NCBI GenBank assembly: GCA_016840855.1
Contig: JAEORO010000206.1
Coordinates: 1-11,929 of the forward strand
Length of the DNA stretch: 11,929 nucleotides
Direction of reading: 5' to 3'
From: Candidatus Thorarchaeota archaeon
Lineage (GTDB): Archaea > Asgardarchaeota > Thorarchaeia > Thorarchaeales > Thorarchaeaceae
Part shown: positions 2,532 through 10,203 of the stretch, piece by piece
How the letters are laid out: every line of letters starts with the position of its first letter
Position numbering within the stretch: position 1 is the first letter of the stretch
Position numbers and translations under genes: made by a program
Notes under the pieces: generated by a model
What the model was told of the DNA's origin: nothing
Seen by the model: only the letters and a program-made list of their open reading frames with translations
Databases searched by the model: none

Positions 2532-2891
2532 TTATTTGATTCCAATACGTGCAGCAATCTTCACAATCAAGAAGACCACAAATGCCACGATTATGAATGT
2601 GATTATACTATCCATAATGGGACCAAATGATAGGATATACAATTCGCCTGTGGGATCAATGGGCGGATATACTATTTTTACGAGTGGCATAATGAGACTG
2701 CTCACAAGTGCCTGTACAATCACTCCGATATAGATACCCAAAATGAACGCAACAGCGAGTCCAAGTACCTTGTAGTTTGATATGAAAGCAACAAACTCAT
2801 TGATGAGCCCCTTTGGAGGTTCAGGTGCAGGTGCTGGTGTGAGTAGCTTCCGAATCTCTCTAAGTTCTTCTAACATTTCATCGTTTGACAT
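2532..2891 (-). CDS. mscL: Large-conductance mechanosensitive channel MscL
   Basis: LINEFVAFISNYKVLGLAVAFILG matches the S1 helix and TM1 start. LVSSLIMPLV and FGPIMDSIITFIIVAFVVFLIVK match the TM1 end and TM2. RBS GGGGTGA lies 4 nt upstream of the ATG. Confidence 0.9.
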   Translation of the reverse strand: MSNDEMLEELREIRKLLTPAPAPEPPKGLINEFVAFISNYKVLGLAVAFILGIYIGVIVQALVSSLIMPLVKIVYPPIDPTGELYILSFGPIMDSIITFIIVAFVVFLIVKIAARIGIK

Positions 2892-2993: not shown

Positions 2994-3596
2994 ATGAGCT
3001 TCTGGTTTGTACTTTCAATGATAGGTCTAATCCTTGTCGTCCCAGTTCATTTCCTATCAGTTGAACATTCTAGATTGGACCGGAAATATGGAGAGGCGAA
3101 GGGATTCAAGATTGGAGCTGGGCTTGGGATGATCTCGGGATGGGGATTCTTCCTATTTTTGATTGGCCTTTGGATCTCTCCCCAGGATAGATTCTTGATA
3201 GAAATCTCAGATATCAACGTCATTGGCGTACCACTTTTTCACCTCCTATTAGCTATTGGGTTTCTTCTACCTGGAGCTTGGCTTGGTATCAAAGGAGTGA
3301 CTGAGATGGGCCTTAAAACTGCGGAAACACATAGAGCTGAAAGGGTGATTTCCACTGGCGTCTATTCAAGAATTAGACATCCACAATATCTAGGGTCTAT
3401 TCTAGCTCATATTGGTGCATCATTTCTTTTTTCAGCTTATTACGCGATTCTAACAACTCCACTTGTCGTTTTAATCAATTACATCCTTTGTTGGAAGGAG
3501 GAACAAGAGTTGATTAGAGAGTTCGGTGAGGAGTATCAGCACTATCGGGATAATGTGCCAATGTTTGTGCCCAGACTCGGAAGCAAGTTAGACTAG
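2994..3596 (+). CDS. Isoprenylcysteine carboxyl methyltransferase (ICMT/PEMT, Ste14-like) family membrane methyltransferase
   Basis: Signature motifs TGVYSRIRHPQYLG and EEQELIREFGEEYQHYRDNVPMFVP, plus multiple TM segments. Confidence 0.9.
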   Translation: MSFWFVLSMIGLILVVPVHFLSVEHSRLDRKYGEAKGFKIGAGLGMISGWGFFLFLIGLWISPQDRFLIEISDINVIGVPLFHLLLAIGFLLPGAWLGIKGVTEMGLKTAETHRAERVISTGVYSRIRHPQYLGSILAHIGASFLFSAYYAILTTPLVVLINYILCWKEEQELIREFGEEYQHYRDNVPMFVPRLGSKLD

Positions 3597-3794
3597 AATC
3601 AATAATTCAATTGAAATGAGGTTTGTCTGATTTTTTCATCAATCCTTTCAATTAATCGAACATAGGCCAAACAAGGAATAGTAATAACCTAAAATTATGA
3701 GCTTTCTGAGTTGAGTGGGCTCCACATATTCAATATCGGATAAATTAGCCAAAAAGCCGATTGAATTCCAAGCTTAGTATTCGAGGTGACCGAG

Positions 3795-6700
3795 ATGCAT
3801 GCCAAAAGATATGCCATTCTTACATTGATTGCATTTTCACTGATTTTGACACAACTGGCATTATCAACTCAGGAAAGCAATGAAGATGTTATCAATGAGG
3901 TTTCTAGTGGTACGGGAAAAAGCCCTGTGTTCAGAAACATCAACGAGGTGAATGATGGGAGATTCACAATCTCACAAGTTAATCATGCGGGAGTCATAAA
4001 TCCAGTATCAATACTGCAATCGGGGTATCAGACAACTGAATTGAAACGTGGAAGAACTGATACAGGGGGAAATACAGCAGGAAATATCACAATTGATGAG
4101 GCAAATGGGTGGTTCGTGAATAGCACAGGAATTGAGGTCACTGGCCTTAAGCGCTTATATGGACTAAACGGAACATTTGATGATGGGACAGATCCATGGA
4201 TACCGTACACAATTGATGGAGGAGCTAACACACAAATCAATTCCTATAATTCTACTGGGGGATTCATTGTGTGCAGAAATATGGGCAATTACAATCCATC
4301 AGGGGGAGGATACTATACTCATAGTGAACTGTCCGAGGCAGGATGGGAACAAGTAGTCACCAACACGCCAGAGTCATTAACTTTCAAGATGGAGTTTAAT
4401 TTCCGCTATGTAACGGGGCCCCTTGATCCAGAAGGTGATGATTCATTTGCTGGAGATGTTGGCGTTTTTTGGCAATTAGGATCTGAGGGTTATTACTATC
4501 CTATGCAGGAGTTTGATTCTAGAGAAACATGGTATTCTGTTAGTCATGTCTTTACAGTTAGTCCTGGATTGAGCACTTTCTCAATATATGTTGGTCTTTA
4601 CATTGGTGGCGGTAACGTCAGAGTGTACATAAATAATGACTATGACGATGATGGTGTTGGTGATGGTATAGAAAATGCACAGAATGTAACAGTGTATATC
4701 GATAATGTTGAGTTCACAAGTACAACGTCCCCTGACTTTGAAGATGTTGGCTTATCTTATCATGCGGGTGCGCTATCAGCTCCCATCTTGGGAACAGAAA
4801 CCGGAACAGCTACAATCACTAATCCAGATTTTTGGAACACATCACCTCTCGAATATCAAATTACAGCCAGTGCAAATGTCCTTTTCACATATTCAGTTAC
4901 TTCATTATTTCAACGTTACATCAATTCGTCATGGACAACAAGCCTTAGCAGCAATGGGGTTTCATACTCAATATCATCTGGGATGAGTTCGGATCTCACG
5001 TTCTATACATATATTACACAACCAAGCGGCTACTATGACTCCACGTTTGACATTTTGTTTCCAAGAGATTGGGAAAATACCACTGTCTGGGACCCCCTAA
5101 TGAATAATATAACAAGTTACTGTGATGTACAGCCAGGAAAGCTCCATATTCCAACTAGCGAGTTAAGTCGTAGTGGATGGTGGGAGATTAATCTCAATGG
5201 TTTAAACTATGCAAAGAACATTTCAGTTCAGGTATTTGATCAAGACTTAGGTCAATGGTCAGAAAATTCTCTTTTCCGACCGGGCAATGAAACGAGAATA
5301 GAAGTAGAGATAGGAACACCCAGTATAACGCCAGTAGGTAGCGACCCTGTTAATATAACATGGTTCCTGCCAAATGAAGACATCTGGACAATGGATTCAA
5401 TTACAACAATGACAGGTGGTGCTGTGACCAGTTCTAGATGGACATTTGGTTCAACCAACACTACTGCTGGAGAATGGTTAATCGATATACTCTGGACAAA
5501 TGGAACCGAAATAGCCTACCAATCAGTATCTTTCGACCTTTATCATTCAGCTTCTATTACTGCAACATACCCAATTATTGAATCAGACTATGGTCAGACT
5601 ATATCAAATCTTATCACACTCAAGGACGCCGATACGAACGAATTCCTCTTGGATGATAGTGTAACCATTGAGGCTAACTGGTCAAGCTCAATCATTGAAT
5701 TCACACAAAATTATGCAAAGAAATGGTGGGAAGCTGATTTTGATACATCATTAATTGGTGGAGGTGAATTCACTGTACTGGTTACTGCTTCAAGACCATA
5801 TTTTGATACAATTATAACTCAATTTACTGTAATCTCACTCTACAGGACAACCCTTGAAATCGTGAACACTGGATCAATCCCTATTGAGAATGGACTCAAT
5901 GAGGTTTTTACAGCTCAAATTGATTATGAGTTCCTTAATGGGACAGGTATTATCGGAGCATTGCCAATAATCACATTTTCGGGTCCAGTAGGCGGACTTT
6001 CGTGGACCAATTTCATTGACAATGACAATGGACACTATTCTGTGGACATAATTTGTGATATAGCCACAACCTACGGTGTCACAATCACTCTATCTAAACC
6101 ATATCATTACAACTCCTCAGACTCCTTTACACTCATCATAAGTGAAACTGGAACAGAGCTTGAATCTCTGAATGGCACTGCAGATGTTGTTAGATTTGGT
6201 GATAGCTATAGACTTGTGGTCGAATATCGAAACAGCACTGGCCAGGGACTATCTGGTGCAGATTTAGAGATTGTATCTATAACCCCTCAAACTGGACTAA
6301 TCAATGGAACATTCATTCCGATAACTAGTGGGTATTACGAGATTACTTTGACGCCAACCACTACGGGTACATATTCAATAGTAATCAGTGCGAGTCTCTT
6401 CAATCATGAAACTCAATATATCACCTTCACCCTAACAGGCGTGGTCATTCCGACGATTCTAACATCCATTCCATCAAGTGCTACAGTCGCGGTTAATCAG
6501 AGTTTCACTCTTCAGCTATTATTCCAAGATGAGAATCTAAATCCGATTGATTTAGCAACTATCACTGATATAGACCCACCAAGTGGAATTCTGATTTCAG
6601 GAGCTATACCGATTGGAAGTGGATTATATAATATTACTCTAAAGTCATCAGATATTGCTACCTACAACCTACTCTTTAGAGCTTCAGCTGTTAATTATCA

Positions 6701-9356
6701 GAGTTCGATTGTGGGATTCACACTATCGGTAACAGCCATACAGACCACCTTAGAAATTCTGAATGCGGGATCGATTCCGGTTGAAAATGGTCTCAATGAA
6801 ATTTTCAGAGTTCAATTGAGTTACCAACTCCTAAACGGGAGTGGAGTGGCTGGGGCTTTACCCACCATCATATTCACAGGACCTCAAGAGGGCCTTTCAT
6901 GGACCAATTTCAGCGACAATGACAATGGGCTGTATTCCCTAGATATTAAGTGCAATGTATCAGCGATTTATGGGATATCGATTACACTATCTAAGGCGTT
7001 TTATTACAGTACCACTGATGCCTTTACTTTGATTATTGATGAAACAGATAGCGAACTACTGCTTCTTAATGGCACAGTAGATGTCGTTCTATTTGGTAGT
7101 AATTATACTCTGGTTGTTGAATTTAGAAACAGCACTGGGACGGGTCTTGCAGGTGCCAATCTACAAGTCGTGACCATAACTCCAGCAAGTGGACTGACTC
7201 ATGATGGCTTTTCACATATTATTGATGGATACTATCAGATTACATTGACTCCTACAGCAGCTGGAGCATTCTCAATTGTAATCAGTGCCAGTATCATAAA
7301 TCATGTAACTCAATATAAGACGTTCACTCTGACTGCGACAGGAATTCCAACGATTCTTACATCATTGCCTTCAAGTGCAAGTATCGCTTTTGATCAAACC
7401 TTCACAGTTCAATTACACTTTCAGGATGAGAATTTGAATCCAATTGACTTTGCTAACTTCACAGTGACAAATCCACCAAGTGGTCTGATCATTTCAGAAG
7501 TTGTTTCAGTGGGGCCCGGGACAGGATTGTACAATTTCACGTTGACTCCGATACAAATAGGCACTTTCAATATTCTCTTTAGGAGTTCGATAGATAACTA
7601 TCAGAGTTCAAGTGCAGCTTTCACGCTTATCGTGACTGAGATTGAAACAAGAATTGAGTTTGCTGGTGGAGTTTCTTCTGCACTTGTTGAATTCCAGGAG
7701 TCATACCAACTAATAGTCTACTATTATCGTACCGACCTAGCAACGCTGGCAAATGTGAATGGAGCTAATGTTTCGGTCTTTGCCTATGATCCTGGACTCA
7801 ACATAGTTGTTAATGAAGTTGGAGGATATTATTTAATTACTATTACAGGCCAAACAGTAGGAACATGGTTCCTCACTATTTCAGCTAACAAGACAGATCA
7901 TTATGTAGCGACAAAGCAGTTTCTCTTTGAGGTTGCAGAGATTGATACATCAATTGAAGGATCTAATCCTCTAGAGTCACTCTTTGTTGGCCGATCCTAC
8001 TTGTTTAATTTCACTTATATGATTAAGTCAAACAGTAGTCATGTCTTTGGAGCAGATATCACACCATTAGGGGAAGGGGCAGATTGGATTTCGGTAGTAG
8101 AAATGGGTAGTGGTCAATATTCTATTGCACTGACTCCAGCTCTACTAGGGTCGCACAGCATAATTCTAGTATTTGGAAAATATGGATTTGAAACAGCCAG
8201 CTTCAGACTTACATTCAGCGTTTCCAGAGTACCCATATCAGTGGAAATCTTGGAAGGCCTTAGCGGTTTAGAGAAAACGCCAACTACTTTGAGAGTTAGC
8301 ATCACAGAGGCAAATACCGAAAATCCTGTTACAAATGCTACTGTATTCTATAGAATAAGATCGGCATTAACCGAGTATGCGGATGACCCAGTGAGAATGA
8401 CAGAGTCCAACATTCCTGGAATCTATATAGCGACATTGACTATGCCTGATGCAGACTCAGAATATCTTATCCAGATTTCTTGTGAGGCTGAGAATTACGA
8501 ACTCGATGAACCTCTTACAATGCCCTTCAGACAGACACGTAGCTTTACCTCACTCTTAATTGTATATTCAGAACGCTATTGGTGGATAATATTTGGTATT
8601 GTCGCTATTGTTGGAGCTGTAGGTTATAGAAGAAGTGCGAGAAAAAGAAGAATCAAACAAAACAAGATAACCCTCGCCATAAAGAAACGTTTTGATGATG
8701 TTAGAAGCTTGCTTGGTGTGATTGTACTTCACAAAGATAGCGGATTACCAGTCTACTCAAAAATCCTTAGGGAAGGTCTTGAAGAAAGCGTGATTTCAGC
8801 ATTCATATCAGCAATCACTAGTTTCCGAGGCGAGTTTGATATTGAAACGACAACTGAAGAATGGGGACTGATTCCAATCTCGGACATCGTCAGGGTTGTT
8901 TCTACAAACAAGCTAATTTGTGCCTTCATTACAACTAGCAATCCTTCACCTGAACAAAGGGAGAGAATGATCAAATTCGCAAAGACTGTAGGATTCATCT
9001 TTGACGAAACAATGGAAGATGTTCCAGTAGTTATTCTGGATCAACATACTACCAAGCAGTTTAATGCACTATTCGATGACATCCTCGATGGTTCCCTCTT
9101 GAGAATCTATAAGTTGGACGAGGACAAGAAGTTCGCAACAGCTACTTGTGCTGATGAACGGATAGCTCGCAAGCAAGGAGAGGAGTTCAAACTAGAAGAG
9201 CTTGCGTCGGAAATTGCAGCTTGCGGTCTCGAAGAGGGTCGGGTCTATCAAGCGATTATGCGTGCGTTGGAAAATCATTATCTAGTGGCTACTGATGAGT
9301 CCCCGTTTGCTACAAAGATAATCAGAGCACCTGACACTGTGGCGGAAGAGGGATAG
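3795..9356 (+). CDS. Giant single-pass cell-surface protein: signal peptide, CBM-like domain, Ig-like repeat array, TM helix, cytoplasmic longin-like domain
   Basis: Uninterrupted 5.6-kb ORF. RBS GAGGTGA (3783-3789) favours ATG 3795 over GTG 3786. N-terminal KR plus hydrophobic signal. S/T/N-rich beta-strand modules of about 100 aa. TM YWWIIFGIVAIVGAVGY (8577-8627) followed by RRSARKRR, then a ~240-aa alpha/beta tail. Confidence 0.9.
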   Translation: MHAKRYAILTLIAFSLILTQLALSTQESNEDVINEVSSGTGKSPVFRNINEVNDGRFTISQVNHAGVINPVSILQSGYQTTELKRGRTDTGGNTAGNITIDEANGWFVNSTGIEVTGLKRLYGLNGTFDDGTDPWIPYTIDGGANTQINSYNSTGGFIVCRNMGNYNPSGGGYYTHSELSEAGWEQVVTNTPESLTFKMEFNFRYVTGPLDPEGDDSFAGDVGVFWQLGSEGYYYPMQEFDSRETWYSVSHVFTVSPGLSTFSIYVGLYIGGGNVRVYINNDYDDDGVGDGIENAQNVTVYIDNVEFTSTTSPDFEDVGLSYHAGALSAPILGTETGTATITNPDFWNTSPLEYQITASANVLFTYSVTSLFQRYINSSWTTSLSSNGVSYSISSGMSSDLTFYTYITQPSGYYDSTFDILFPRDWENTTVWDPLMNNITSYCDVQPGKLHIPTSELSRSGWWEINLNGLNYAKNISVQVFDQDLGQWSENSLFRPGNETRIEVEIGTPSITPVGSDPVNITWFLPNEDIWTMDSITTMTGGAVTSSRWTFGSTNTTAGEWLIDILWTNGTEIAYQSVSFDLYHSASITATYPIIESDYGQTISNLITLKDADTNEFLLDDSVTIEANWSSSIIEFTQNYAKKWWEADFDTSLIGGGEFTVLVTASRPYFDTIITQFTVISLYRTTLEIVNTGSIPIENGLNEVFTAQIDYEFLNGTGIIGALPIITFSGPVGGLSWTNFIDNDNGHYSVDIICDIATTYGVTITLSKPYHYNSSDSFTLIISETGTELESLNGTADVVRFGDSYRLVVEYRNSTGQGLSGADLEIVSITPQTGLINGTFIPITSGYYEITLTPTTTGTYSIVISASLFNHETQYITFTLTGVVIPTILTSIPSSATVAVNQSFTLQLLFQDENLNPIDLATITDIDPPSGILISGAIPIGSGLYNITLKSSDIATYNLLFRASAVNYQSSIVGFTLSVTAIQTTLEILNAGSIPVENGLNEIFRVQLSYQLLNGSGVAGALPTIIFTGPQEGLSWTNFSDNDNGLYSLDIKCNVSAIYGISITLSKAFYYSTTDAFTLIIDETDSELLLLNGTVDVVLFGSNYTLVVEFRNSTGTGLAGANLQVVTITPASGLTHDGFSHIIDGYYQITLTPTAAGAFSIVISASIINHVTQYKTFTLTATGIPTILTSLPSSASIAFDQTFTVQLHFQDENLNPIDFANFTVTNPPSGLIISEVVSVGPGTGLYNFTLTPIQIGTFNILFRSSIDNYQSSSAAFTLIVTEIETRIEFAGGVSSALVEFQESYQLIVYYYRTDLATLANVNGANVSVFAYDPGLNIVVNEVGGYYLITITGQTVGTWFLTISANKTDHYVATKQFLFEVAEIDTSIEGSNPLESLFVGRSYLFNFTYMIKSNSSHVFGADITPLGEGADWISVVEMGSGQYSIALTPALLGSHSIILVFGKYGFETASFRLTFSVSRVPISVEILEGLSGLEKTPTTLRVSITEANTENPVTNATVFYRIRSALTEYADDPVRMTESNIPGIYIATLTMPDADSEYLIQISCEAENYELDEPLTMPFRQTRSFTSLLIVYSERYWWIIFGIVAIVGAVGYRRSARKRRIKQNKITLAIKKRFDDVRSLLGVIVLHKDSGLPVYSKILREGLEESVISAFISAITSFRGEFDIETTTEEWGLIPISDIVRVVSTNKLICAFITTSNPSPEQRERMIKFAKTVGFIFDETMEDVPVVILDQHTTKQFNALFDDILDGSLLRIYKLDEDKKFATATCADERIARKQGEEFKLEELASEIAACGLEEGRVYQAIMRALENHYLVATDESPFATKIIRAPDTVAEEG
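5847..7646 (+). repeat. Intragenic tandem duplication, two copies of about 900 bp (5847-6743 and 6744-7646)
   Basis: TTLEIVNTGSIPIENGLNEVF recurs as TTLEILNAGSIPVENGLNEIF at an 897-nt offset. The copies are colinear over 299 and 301 aa. By hand alignment 64 of 101 residues are identical in the first module. Confidence 0.95.
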
Positions 9357-9393: not shown

Positions 9394-10203
9394 TTATTCA
9401 AGATTTCGAACCAAGTAATAGTCCACTATATTCTTCTTTCTAGCTAATGGCACTAAAAGAATCAGTAGAACTATGATGATGGTCACGACTGTGGCAGTCC
9501 AGAAGATTATCGGGATCGAAGACCACTTTGCAGCAATTCCTGGTGCAGCCCATACTACTACTAGAGCATAGGCAAGATCACGTCTTAGAACAATCATAAG
9601 AGATGTGATTAATAATGCCACGATAAGTACCAAAGCTGTCCAAAGATATTGGTCAGCATCAAGTAATGCAAATCCAGTTAATGTGTTGATTACCGATGCT
9701 GTGTTAGCTATAGTTGCTAGGGATATCCAACCAACATAGACACTGACAGGCAAATGAATAGCTATCTTCTGTTTCAGGGGTACTTCTTTAACACCAATTT
9801 CAAGCCTCACATATGTAAGAAGAAGGACCACTAGAAGACCAACAATCAAAGGTTCAGTCCAAACCAATAATGGACTATTCCCATATGAATAATGGAAAAC
9901 GAGTAGCCAGGCCACATTAAGAAATGCACCAATCAAATACAAGTAACCAATCTTTGCTAGGTATTCTTCACCCACTTGATTAGCTTTTGCTTGATAAAAG
10001 ACAAAGATCAAGAGGAGTACGTAAATCACACCCCAAATTGCGAAGACATAGCCTTGGGGGGTGAAATAGTTTGGAAAATAATCTGATACCTGACCAGTAT
10101 TTACACCATTAAATGGCAAGATATTTGCTAGCATATTCATCGCAATTGTGAACGCAACTGCGAAGATGTTTATTATTTGGAATGATTTGTAGTTAGCTGA
10201 CAT
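9394..10203 (-). CDS. TspO/MBR-related tryptophan-rich sensory membrane protein (long, about 8-TM type)
   Basis: Motifs NTGQVSDYFPNYFTPQGYVFAIWGVIY, LNVAWLLVF, PVSVYVGWISLATIAN and YALVVVWA. GGGAG lies upstream of the ATG. Confidence 0.8.
   Translation of the reverse strand: MSANYKSFQIINIFAVAFTIAMNMLANILPFNGVNTGQVSDYFPNYFTPQGYVFAIWGVIYVLLLIFVFYQAKANQVGEEYLAKIGYLYLIGAFLNVAWLLVFHYSYGNSPLLVWTEPLIVGLLVVLLLTYVRLEIGVKEVPLKQKIAIHLPVSVYVGWISLATIANTASVINTLTGFALLDADQYLWTALVLIVALLITSLMIVLRRDLAYALVVVWAAPGIAAKWSSIPIIFWTATVVTIIIVLLILLVPLARKKNIVDYYLVRNLE

Follow-up and report, generated by a model that had tools for sequence, protein, structure and literature searches.

Among eukaryote-like proteins, longin and roadblock domains and small GTPases are some of those that have expanded most in Asgard archaea, and both the longin/roadblock proteins and this expansion are well described. 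A gene on a contig of a Candidatus Thorarchaeota archaeon (GenBank assembly GCA_016840855.1, contig JAEORO010000206.1; the 11,929 nucleotides analyzed are referred to as the window) raises the question of what such a domain might do when it is attached to a giant surface protein. The open reading frame (ORF), at positions 3786-9356 on the plus strand, encodes 1856 amino acids (aa) counted from a GTG start; ATG 3795, residue 4 of the GTG-initiated frame, matches the database gene call P0002 (1853 aa). The first-pass annotation had described a ∼1600-aa ectodomain, one transmembrane (TM) helix, a positive-inside cluster, and a tail of ∼240 aa, a layout that was correct in every measurable respect. 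The ectodomain comprises ∼1570 aa (residues 28-1597, numbered from the GTG), and the tail comprises 242 aa (residues 1615-1856, window positions 8628-9353). The Asgard origin of the DNA was borne out by the source names of homologues and by the genome assignment.

Sequence statistics indicate that the window protein is probably a type-I single-pass, N-glycosylated surface protein with a cytoplasmic tail. The hydropathy maximum of the protein (Kyte-Doolittle, 1.96) was at residues 9-27, after an n-region with Lys/Arg, and this segment probably fits a signal peptide. Hydropathy gave this one N-terminal hydrophobic core and one TM segment, YWWIIFGIVAIVGAVGY (residues 1598-1614), which has 17 residues and is uncharged. 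Eight Lys/Arg residues were found in the 15 residues after the TM segment, versus two in the 15 residues before it. The ectodomain was rich in Asn, Ser, and Thr and contained 35 N-x-S/T sequons (2.23 per 100 aa, with a genome background in long ORFs of 0.63 per 100 aa), versus 20.9 ± 4.0 and a maximum of 34 in 1000 shuffles of the ectodomain. The tail contained none. Lys plus Arg accounted for 3.5% of the ectodomain versus 14.4% of the tail. Because of the positive-inside cluster, the sequon split, and the contrast in Lys plus Arg, the tail is placed on the cytoplasmic rather than the extracellular side of the membrane, as had been proposed. Signal peptide, one TM segment, positive-inside charge, and sequons confined to the N-terminal side, which together characterize type-I single-pass glycoproteins, were all present.

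The same arrangement was detected across the family of proteins that share the tail. Among the 213 members with enough upstream sequence, 191 had, directly ahead of the tail, 17 or more consecutive uncharged residues with a hydropathy of at least 1.6 in a 17-residue window. Lys/Arg was more frequent after the TM run than before it in 207 of the 213 (median, 7 versus 2 in 15-residue flanks). The sequence of the TM segment was poorly conserved yet hydrophobic across the family.

Judged by sequence identity, no other part of the protein is as well conserved as the tail. In nine full-length orthologues, identity to the window protein was 78 to 89% in the tail, compared to 57 to 76% in the stalk of the ectodomain, 37 to 76% in its N-terminal head, and 24 to 53% in the TM segment. 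Residue conservation was counted over 240 aligned family sequences, with fewer per column. Two tail residues (tail numbering) were invariant, G39 (220/220) and F66 (226/226), followed by A62 (224/225), E69 (220/226), P41 (213/220), and R67 (210/226). A62, F59, E69, P41, S44, P83, and R67 were each present in at least 93% of aligned members. The first 26 residues of the tail have a net charge of +10, and the juxtamembrane helix carries a conserved K-x-R-F-D-D motif, in which F22 and D24 were found in 195 and 210 of 217 aligned members, respectively.

Searched exhaustively with phmmer, 1.84 billion representative proteins yielded only 139 representative clusters. The source names seen were all Thorarchaeota, apart from single Lokiarchaeota, Promethearchaeota, and Thermoplasmata labels. 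The tail profile, which is more sensitive, matched 368 of the 400 genomes of the phylum and 84 of the 85 in the window's own family. The ectodomain-TM-tail layout is real and common in these archaea. In five genomes of other families, the matches were in frames of 700 to 3000 aa that spanned TM and tail, and tailed genes were also found in closed single-contig genomes. Tailed proteins number four in the genome studied here, and all of them have a large ectodomain, a TM segment, and a basic cluster; some genomes have three members in tandem. No RNA run was on record among the listed sequencing runs that hold the stretch.

Several members departed from the common pattern. A fifth, diverged member in this genome (G000:C194:3-2912, plus strand; L059) is in a frame that is open at the contig start and has at least 970 aa and a TM segment; its tail matched the tail profile at an E value of 4.6e-5 and is followed by a Lys/Glu-rich C-terminal extension of ∼120 aa. 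A 3031-aa member in a closed genome of another family (L049, G135:C1:1546000-1565999; ORF 6241-15336) has a tail domain that stops ∼390 residues short of the C terminus, so that some members have further cytoplasmic sequence. Arrays of two or three adjacent tailed genes with differing ectodomains (L039, G353:C4; L041, G329:C1; L043, G387:C84) suggest local expansion and diversification of the outward-facing part.

The first-pass annotation had also called the tail longin-like. With sequence families silent, this assignment is based on structure. The tail did not reach the gathering scores of the curated longin/roadblock hidden Markov models (Pfam Longin, Sedlin_N, Sybindin, Robl_LC7, Fuz_longin_1, and others). 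An AlphaFold2 (AF2) model of the tail, computed from the 34-sequence alignment A1, had a predicted local distance difference test score (pLDDT) of 81.1 and a predicted template modeling score (pTM) of 0.79. Its elements, in tail numbering, were helices at 2-27, 53-69, 108-125, and 139-152 and strands at 28-35, 41-46, 88-92, and 96-102, and DSSP assigned an additional short strand at residues ∼82-83. The model has the longin core, i.e., five antiparallel strands, with α1 between β2 and β3 and with a C-terminal α2-α3 pair on the sheet.

When the tail model was compared with 48,161 chains by VIA-align, each of the best 50 rows was a longin or roadblock chain (Z, 11.6 to 7.0). Sedlin was the top match (2j3w_A; Z, 11.6; root mean square deviation, 2.9; 127 aa), and Sec22 (3egd_C; Z, 10.5), AP-3 sigma (7p3x_S; Z, 10.5), synbindin (2zmv_A; Z, 10.4), and the longin domain of a Lokiarchaeota Roadblock-Longin protein (8yqg_B; Z, 9.8) were also recovered. 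GTPase platforms among these 50 were TRAPP, Mon1-Ccz1, Fuzzy, BLOC-3, SRX, GATOR1, FLCN, C9orf72-SMCR8, MglB, and the C-terminal domains of Rag proteins. Longin-type chains aligned through residues 152 to 162 and roadblock-type chains only to ∼125 to 141; therefore, the domain is best called longin type. Foldseek also ranked the longin/roadblock superfamily first, and it aligned 250 to 290 columns to SEA/GATOR1 chains at TM scores of 0.22 to 0.28. On these structural models, the tail holds a longin-fold domain, which in the AF2 model takes up residues 22-159 (28-159 in Table 1). In eukaryotes, this fold is used for docking small GTPase switches. Look-alikes of the tail in the protein atlas, with scores of <0.9, were unnamed Asgard clusters of 222 to 236 aa and are leads only.

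Soluble longin relatives of the tail were found in this genome on contigs C58, C1, C183, C187, C205, and C208, and profile comparisons linked the tail to two soluble families. The first, A3 (291 aa; G000:C58:20464-21336, minus strand; L056 and L060; relatives L061-L089), aligned with the tail family along the entire longin domain (hhalign probability, 98.4%; E, 9e-15; 123 columns) and, by sequence profile, is the closest soluble relative of the longin in the tail. Fourteen of 26 A3 members matched Pfam Fuz_longin_1 (PF19036) at an E value of ≤0.1, all below threshold (best match, E of 6.9e-4 and 20.3 bits against a cutoff of 26.1), and no other Pfam family was matched by more than one member. 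In the Rab exchange factors Mon1/Fuzzy/HPS1, Fuz_longin_1 is the first of the longin domains. The A3 proteins also have a conserved C-terminal region of 160 aa with the motif P-Y-F-P-x-R-A that is without a family match, and the gene is tandemly duplicated in some genomes (G336:C7, G337:C126, and G317:C13).

The second family, A4 (431 aa, range 431-530; contigs C1:3148-5351 and C183:1458-3617; L055, L090, and L116; relatives L091-L119), begins with a longin that belongs to the same G-x-P clade and continues with helical/winged-helix repeats. It aligned to the tail family with a hhalign probability of 94.4% (E, 9e-8; 90 columns). Seven of 22 A4 members weakly matched Pfam HTH_NPRL3, and seven matched PqqD. 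In 23 of 30 A4 loci from 25 genomes, including both A4 copies of this genome, the gene immediately downstream encodes a Ras-family GTPase and is on the same strand. On the strength of the profile alignments to A3 and A4 and of the pairing of A4 with GTPase genes, the longin of the tail therefore appears to fall in a clade of Asgard longins that, in its soluble members, has a genetic tie to small GTPases. For the proposal in the first-pass annotation that surface contact is linked to GTPase or membrane-remodelling machinery, this is the sole support, and it is indirect. This genome has 25 Ras-family and 12 Roadblock matches, which are candidate partners. A 656-aa frame elsewhere in the genome (G000:C159:11059-13026, plus strand) has a Ras/RagA-like GTPase domain and a C-terminal longin-like domain with weak similarity to the tail (E, 0.018); by its sequence, it is a Rag-type GTPase-longin fusion.

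A G-[LIV]-P motif at the end of the β1-β2 loop was common to the tail family, A3, and A4 and was invariant or nearly so in A3 and A4. A GP motif at or just before β2 is specific to the longins of the GTPase-activating protein (GAP) type, FLCN, NPRL2, SMCR8, and C9orf72 (PMC12290439). In the part of that paper available here, the motif adjoins the arginine finger and is also found in some Asgard longins. G39-L40-P41 of the tail sits at the same place, but its G and P are separated by one additional residue. The consensus of A3 and A4 has Ser in place of R67, which is at the C-terminal end of α1. By fold topology, R67 should be near the G-x-P loop, which is a lead rather than a finding.

The longin-fold domain is followed by a small C-terminal domain. 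In the model of the full tail, tail residues 173-221 formed a helix-strand-helix-helix-strand unit. The C-terminal 93 residues folded alone gave strand-helix-strand-helix-helix-strand. VIA-align returned mixed rows (best Z, 7.3), with winged-helix chains frequent at Z values of 4 to 7. These included recognition elements of ribosomally synthesized and posttranslationally modified peptides (RRE), MCM, Rpa2, APC2, and RecX (Foldseek best E, 0.5). A winged-helix-like fold is thus a reasonable but unproven description. The last 83 residues (tail 160-242, residues 1774-1856, including the C-terminal end) have a net charge of −7, and therefore DNA binding by this domain is unlikely. No profile similarity was detected between this domain and the NPRL3-HTH-like region of A4 (hhalign probability, 0.2%).

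On the other side of the membrane, the ectodomain gave four Pfam matches, all below the gathering score: Filamin (23.5 bits versus a cutoff of 26.9), BatD, MG2 (residues 493-568, within the head), and Big_1. NCBIfam and PDB sequence searches with the protein gave zero matches. A block of 299 aa is present twice in tandem, at residues 688-986 and 987-1287 (61% identity over 301 aa; E, 8e-120), and more diverged repeats of ∼100 aa run on to approximately residue 1510. Homologues such as P0004, P0015, and P0081 have precomputed matches to Filamin (PF00630), Big_1 (PF02369), CarboxypepD_reg (PF13620), and Invasin_D3 (PF09134). From these sequence features, the stalk probably consists of immunoglobulin (Ig)-like beta-sandwich repeats. 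The look-alikes that the protein atlas gave for the head all scored <0.9; they were Ig-like Big_1 proteins and, in 33% of one cluster, CBM_4_9, and they serve only as leads.

What, then, might the tail do? The explanation that we tentatively favor, with confidence a little short of even, is that the tail serves as a docking platform of the longin type that is held at the membrane, is probably dimeric, and takes up a small GTPase or another longin/roadblock protein, and that it would couple a surface contact protein to GTPase machinery. The variable head and the Ig-like stalk would face outward, and the conserved 242-aa module, consisting of the basic juxtamembrane helix, the longin-fold domain, and the small acidic winged-helix-like domain, would face the cytoplasm. 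There it may serve as a protein-docking platform at the inner face of the membrane, probably working, by analogy with other longin platforms, as a homodimer or paired in a heterodimer with the tail of a paralogue. The partner recruited from the cytosol would most probably be a small GTPase of the Ras/Rab/Arf/Rag-like kind or another longin/roadblock protein. Recruitment would tie an adhesion or contact protein of the surface to GTPase-based organizing machinery, and either inward signaling or mere positioning and anchoring could result. The likeness to eukaryotic adhesion receptors that the first-pass annotation drew remains an analogy.

Several results weigh against this explanation. Sequence searches gave no direct match of the tail to a curated longin, roadblock, or other family: the window tail matched no Pfam family at an E value of ≤1, no two of 34 family members hit the same Pfam family, and NCBIfam gave no match to the tail. 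There was likewise no match in the PDB for the tail-family profile (E ≤ 10) or with phmmer (E ≤ 1). The top Foldseek rows, although of the same superfamily, were weak (best E, 2.7e-3), and the winged-helix-like assignment is of moderate confidence (pLDDT, 67.5; Z ≤ 7.3). A4 is a distant relative, with only 90 columns aligned. Gene neighborhoods were compared for 20 family genes in 16 stretches, with Pfam run on the nearest 104 of 175 neighboring ORFs, and tailed genes had no conserved neighbor in this set. At 2 of the 20 (L043 and L049), a Ras-family GTPase gene was next to the family gene or one gene removed from it, which is about chance level because the genome has 25 Ras-family matches. 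None of the 25 GTPase or 12 Roadblock matches is on the four contigs, all short, that hold the paralogues of this genome. Furthermore, longin domains also act without GTPases, in SNARE autoinhibition and as adaptor cores, and the fold alone therefore does not name the partner.

It is possible, though we consider it unlikely, that the tail is a passive anchor that only dimerizes or oligomerizes and so holds a glycoprotein coat, for example, on a cytoskeletal or membrane lattice, with neither a GTPase nor signaling. Longin and roadblock domains are habitual dimerizers, and the Lokiarchaeota longin structure 8yqg is titled "dimeric." The several paralogues per genome, their tandem arrays, and the lack of a GTPase gene linked to the tailed genes in the neighborhoods compared fit such an anchor as well. 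The available part of one report describes the envelope of a cultured Asgard archaeon as having no ordered surface layer and many complex surface proteins, which are not named there (PMC9834061). However, it is hard to see why a passive anchor should require a 242-aa module that exceeds the ectodomain in conservation and in which the surface-loop residues G39, P41, R67, and E69 are invariant, and the homologous soluble longins are operonic with GTPases.

A stronger version of the docking explanation, which we regard as quite doubtful, is that the tail is a membrane-tethered catalytic longin. Dimeric tails would use the G-x-P loop and Arg67 to act as a GAP, or a guanine nucleotide exchange factor like TRAPP or Mon1-Ccz1, for a Ras/Rag/Arf-like GTPase, with contact or clustering of the ectodomain in control. 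If this were true, a receptor on a prokaryotic cell surface would be connected straight to a small-GTPase switch, and the protein could be a forerunner of the GATOR/Ragulator/TRAPP type of platform that is anchored to membranes.

The tail could instead be a sorting or biogenesis signal, through which trafficking machinery (ESCRT, vesicle budding, or a targeting step like that of SRX and SR-beta) directs the protein to protrusions or extracellular vesicles or aids its membrane insertion. SRX domains are longin folds that bind the SR-beta GTPase, and those of the signal recognition particle (SRP) receptor alpha subunit were among the VIA-align matches (5ck3_A, Z of 9.1; 1nrj_A, Z of 8.1), in which sigma and mu longins of adaptor complexes also ranked high. 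Asgard proteins that combine longin, Vps28-C, and Ig-like domains are mentioned in the available portion of another study (PMC11188069). Nevertheless, this role seems improbable: an ordinary N-terminal signal peptide is present, so that a C-terminal targeting domain is not needed, and no ESCRT or SRP genes were found beside the 20 family genes examined.

It is highly improbable that the protein is a membrane-tethered transcription factor that contacts DNA through its C-terminal winged helix, perhaps once proteolysis has released the tail. The topology of the domain and weak matches that include the DNA-binding Fur/PerR, SAMD1, and MntR are in favor of it, but the domain is acidic, its best structural rows are winged helices that bind proteins or peptides (RRE, MCM, APC2, and Rpa2), and no site-2-protease-type gene was found in the contexts examined. 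The DNA-binding reading of the domain was rejected on the acidic charge.

Logan contigs from runs of three studies cover positions 8487-8609 and 8580-8839 and span the ectodomain/TM and TM/tail boundaries without joints; these contigs are ≤330 bases long, and some bins were uncovered in single runs. The possibility that mis-assembly joined the ectodomain and the tail has next to no probability, even though the contig is metagenome assembled and the genome has an estimated contamination of 6.3%, because the same order recurs in 115 large proteins from many sources and independent assemblies, in single-contig genomes, and in all four paralogues, and the boundary contigs are free of joints.

With the docking explanation still the preferred one, the protein can be compared with known systems. 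The tail has the same fold, over ∼120 to 130 residues, as TRAPP (sedlin/TRAPPC2, TRAPPC1, and synbindin) and the tri-longin exchange factors Mon1-Ccz1, Fuzzy-Inturned, and BLOC-3 (Z of 11.6 for 2j3w_A, 10.4 for 2zmv_A, 10.2 for 7b6d_H, 9.2 for 7q3d_C, and 8.7 for 8zwc_B). TRAPP and the exchange factors are soluble and multisubunit, with three longin domains per subunit in the tri-longin proteins, whereas the tail is one longin under a surface glycoprotein. Its link to the tri-longin exchange factors is transitive, through A3, and below threshold, without a direct sequence match.

GATOR1 (NPRL2-NPRL3), FLCN-FNIP, and C9orf72-SMCR8 share the longin fold (8fw5_C, Z of 8.1; 7o2w_A, 8.0; 8adl_S, 7.8; 6ulg_N, 7.3) but scored lower against the tail than TRAPP, Sec22, and AP sigma did. 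These GAP-type longins and the tail are alike in the place of the G-P or G-x-P motif and in having a longin followed by a small helical or winged-helix C-terminal domain; the conserved Arg of the tail, R67, is a candidate counterpart of the arginine finger. They differ in that GAP-type longins carry G-P and the tail carries G-x-P. Pfam NPR2 had no matches in this genome at an E value of ≤10.

Among Asgard proteins, the same fold is found in the Roadblock-Longin protein 8yqg, the Prometheoarchaeum Roadblocks 9jue/9jq8/7yh1, and the Loki Rag-like GTPases 9m28/8yl2 (Z, 9.8, 8.2, 8.3, and 7.7). NPRL2-like longins fused to signaling domains have been reported in Asgard archaea (Liu et al., Nature 2021, of which part was available). 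In that part, the "NPRL2-like" families are described without a transmembrane or ectodomain fusion, unlike the window protein, and A4 may be the "NPRL2-like" Thor family of that study.

The longin SNAREs Sec22b, VAMP7, and Ykt6 are also membrane attached with a cytoplasmic longin (3egd_C, Z of 10.5; 2dmw, 9.9; 2vx8_A, 9.4; 1iou_A, 7.0). They consist of an N-terminal longin, a SNARE motif, and a C-terminal anchor and have no ectodomain, whereas the window protein has a signal peptide, an ectodomain, a TM segment, and then the longin. Neither a SNARE motif nor a coiled-coil SNARE segment was found in the sequence or AF2 model of the tail.

The outward-facing part resembles the Ig-repeat adhesins of bacteria and archaea (Big_1/invasin, filamin-type, and BatD-like), which likewise have a long stalk of ∼100-aa beta-sandwich repeats with recent internal duplication, and archaeal surface glycoproteins, which have a similarly heavy sequon load. 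However, Ig-repeat adhesins terminate in a cell wall or lipid anchor or a bare TM segment, whereas the window protein ends in a conserved, folded cytoplasmic module of 240 aa.

No description of an ectodomain-TM-longin protein was found in a literature search that left most subscription journals outside its range, and Fig. 5c or the supplements of Liu et al. may list the family. New here are the ties found by profile comparison to soluble families that are Fuz_longin_1-like or operonic with GTPases, what was observed on G-x-P and R67, and the TM statistics for the whole family. The family puts a longin platform at a defined place, directly beneath a giant surface glycoprotein, in most of the genomes of the phylum that were sampled. 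The vague question of the role of Asgard longins, in cells that lack endomembranes, becomes a testable one of what binds the tail and what contact of the ectodomain does to it. The answer bears on the connections that existed, before eukaryotes, among cell-cell contact, protrusions, and GTPase switches. Should the tail prove to be merely an anchor, the family is a modest addition to the known Asgard domain fusions.

Table 1. Coordinates of the gene and its parts in the window
Feature	Position	Strand	Basis or remark
Whole gene	3795..9356	+	ATG 3795, in-frame GTG 3786, stop 9354-9356; 1853/1856 aa
Probable signal peptide	3795..3866	+	n-region HAKR, hydrophobic core residues 9-27, end ALS; cleavage site inferred from hydropathy
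N-terminal head of ectodomain, residues 28-590	3867..5555	+	Least conserved; sub-threshold MG2 match only
Stalk, probable ∼100-aa Ig-like beta-sandwich repeats, residues 591-1597	5556..8576	+	Sub-threshold Pfam matches, internal repeats, domains of homologues
299-aa block (∼three repeats) recently duplicated in tandem, residues 688-986 and 987-1287	5847..7646	+	Self-alignment
Predicted single TM helix, residues 1598-1614	8577..8627	+	Hydropathy, family statistics
Predicted basic juxtamembrane helix, tail residues 1-27	8628..8708	+	AF2 helix 2-27, pLDDT 86-91
Predicted longin-fold domain, tail residues 28-159	8709..9104	+	AF2, VIA-align, Foldseek
G-L-P motif (tail G39, P41), end of β1-β2 loop/start of β2	8742..8750	+	Family alignment
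Small acidic domain, possibly winged-helix-like, tail residues 160-222	9105..9293	+	AF2 alone, pLDDT 67.5; VIA-align
Short C-terminal end, tail residues 223-242	9294..9353	+	Mostly low confidence; pLDDT <50 at 232-242

The genes upstream in the window code for an AlkZ-like DNA glycosylase (982-2178), MscL (2532-2891, minus strand), and a PEMT/ICMT-family methyltransferase (2994-3596) and have no evident functional tie to the surface protein. ORFs that match them in size, order, and strand are found at the same positions in the relatives L005 and L007; Pfam, run on L054, confirmed the AlkZ-like and MscL genes there. In other genomes, an actin-family gene is one gene downstream of a 737-aa member (L052, G094:C21, 10586-11620), and a heliorhodopsin gene is near a member (L047, G138, 16558-17394); each is a single case and probably a coincidence. 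Convergent with the surface-protein gene in the window is a gene (9394-10203, minus strand) for a 269-aa multipass membrane protein with no Pfam match, and a gene of equal size and position is present in L005 and L007.

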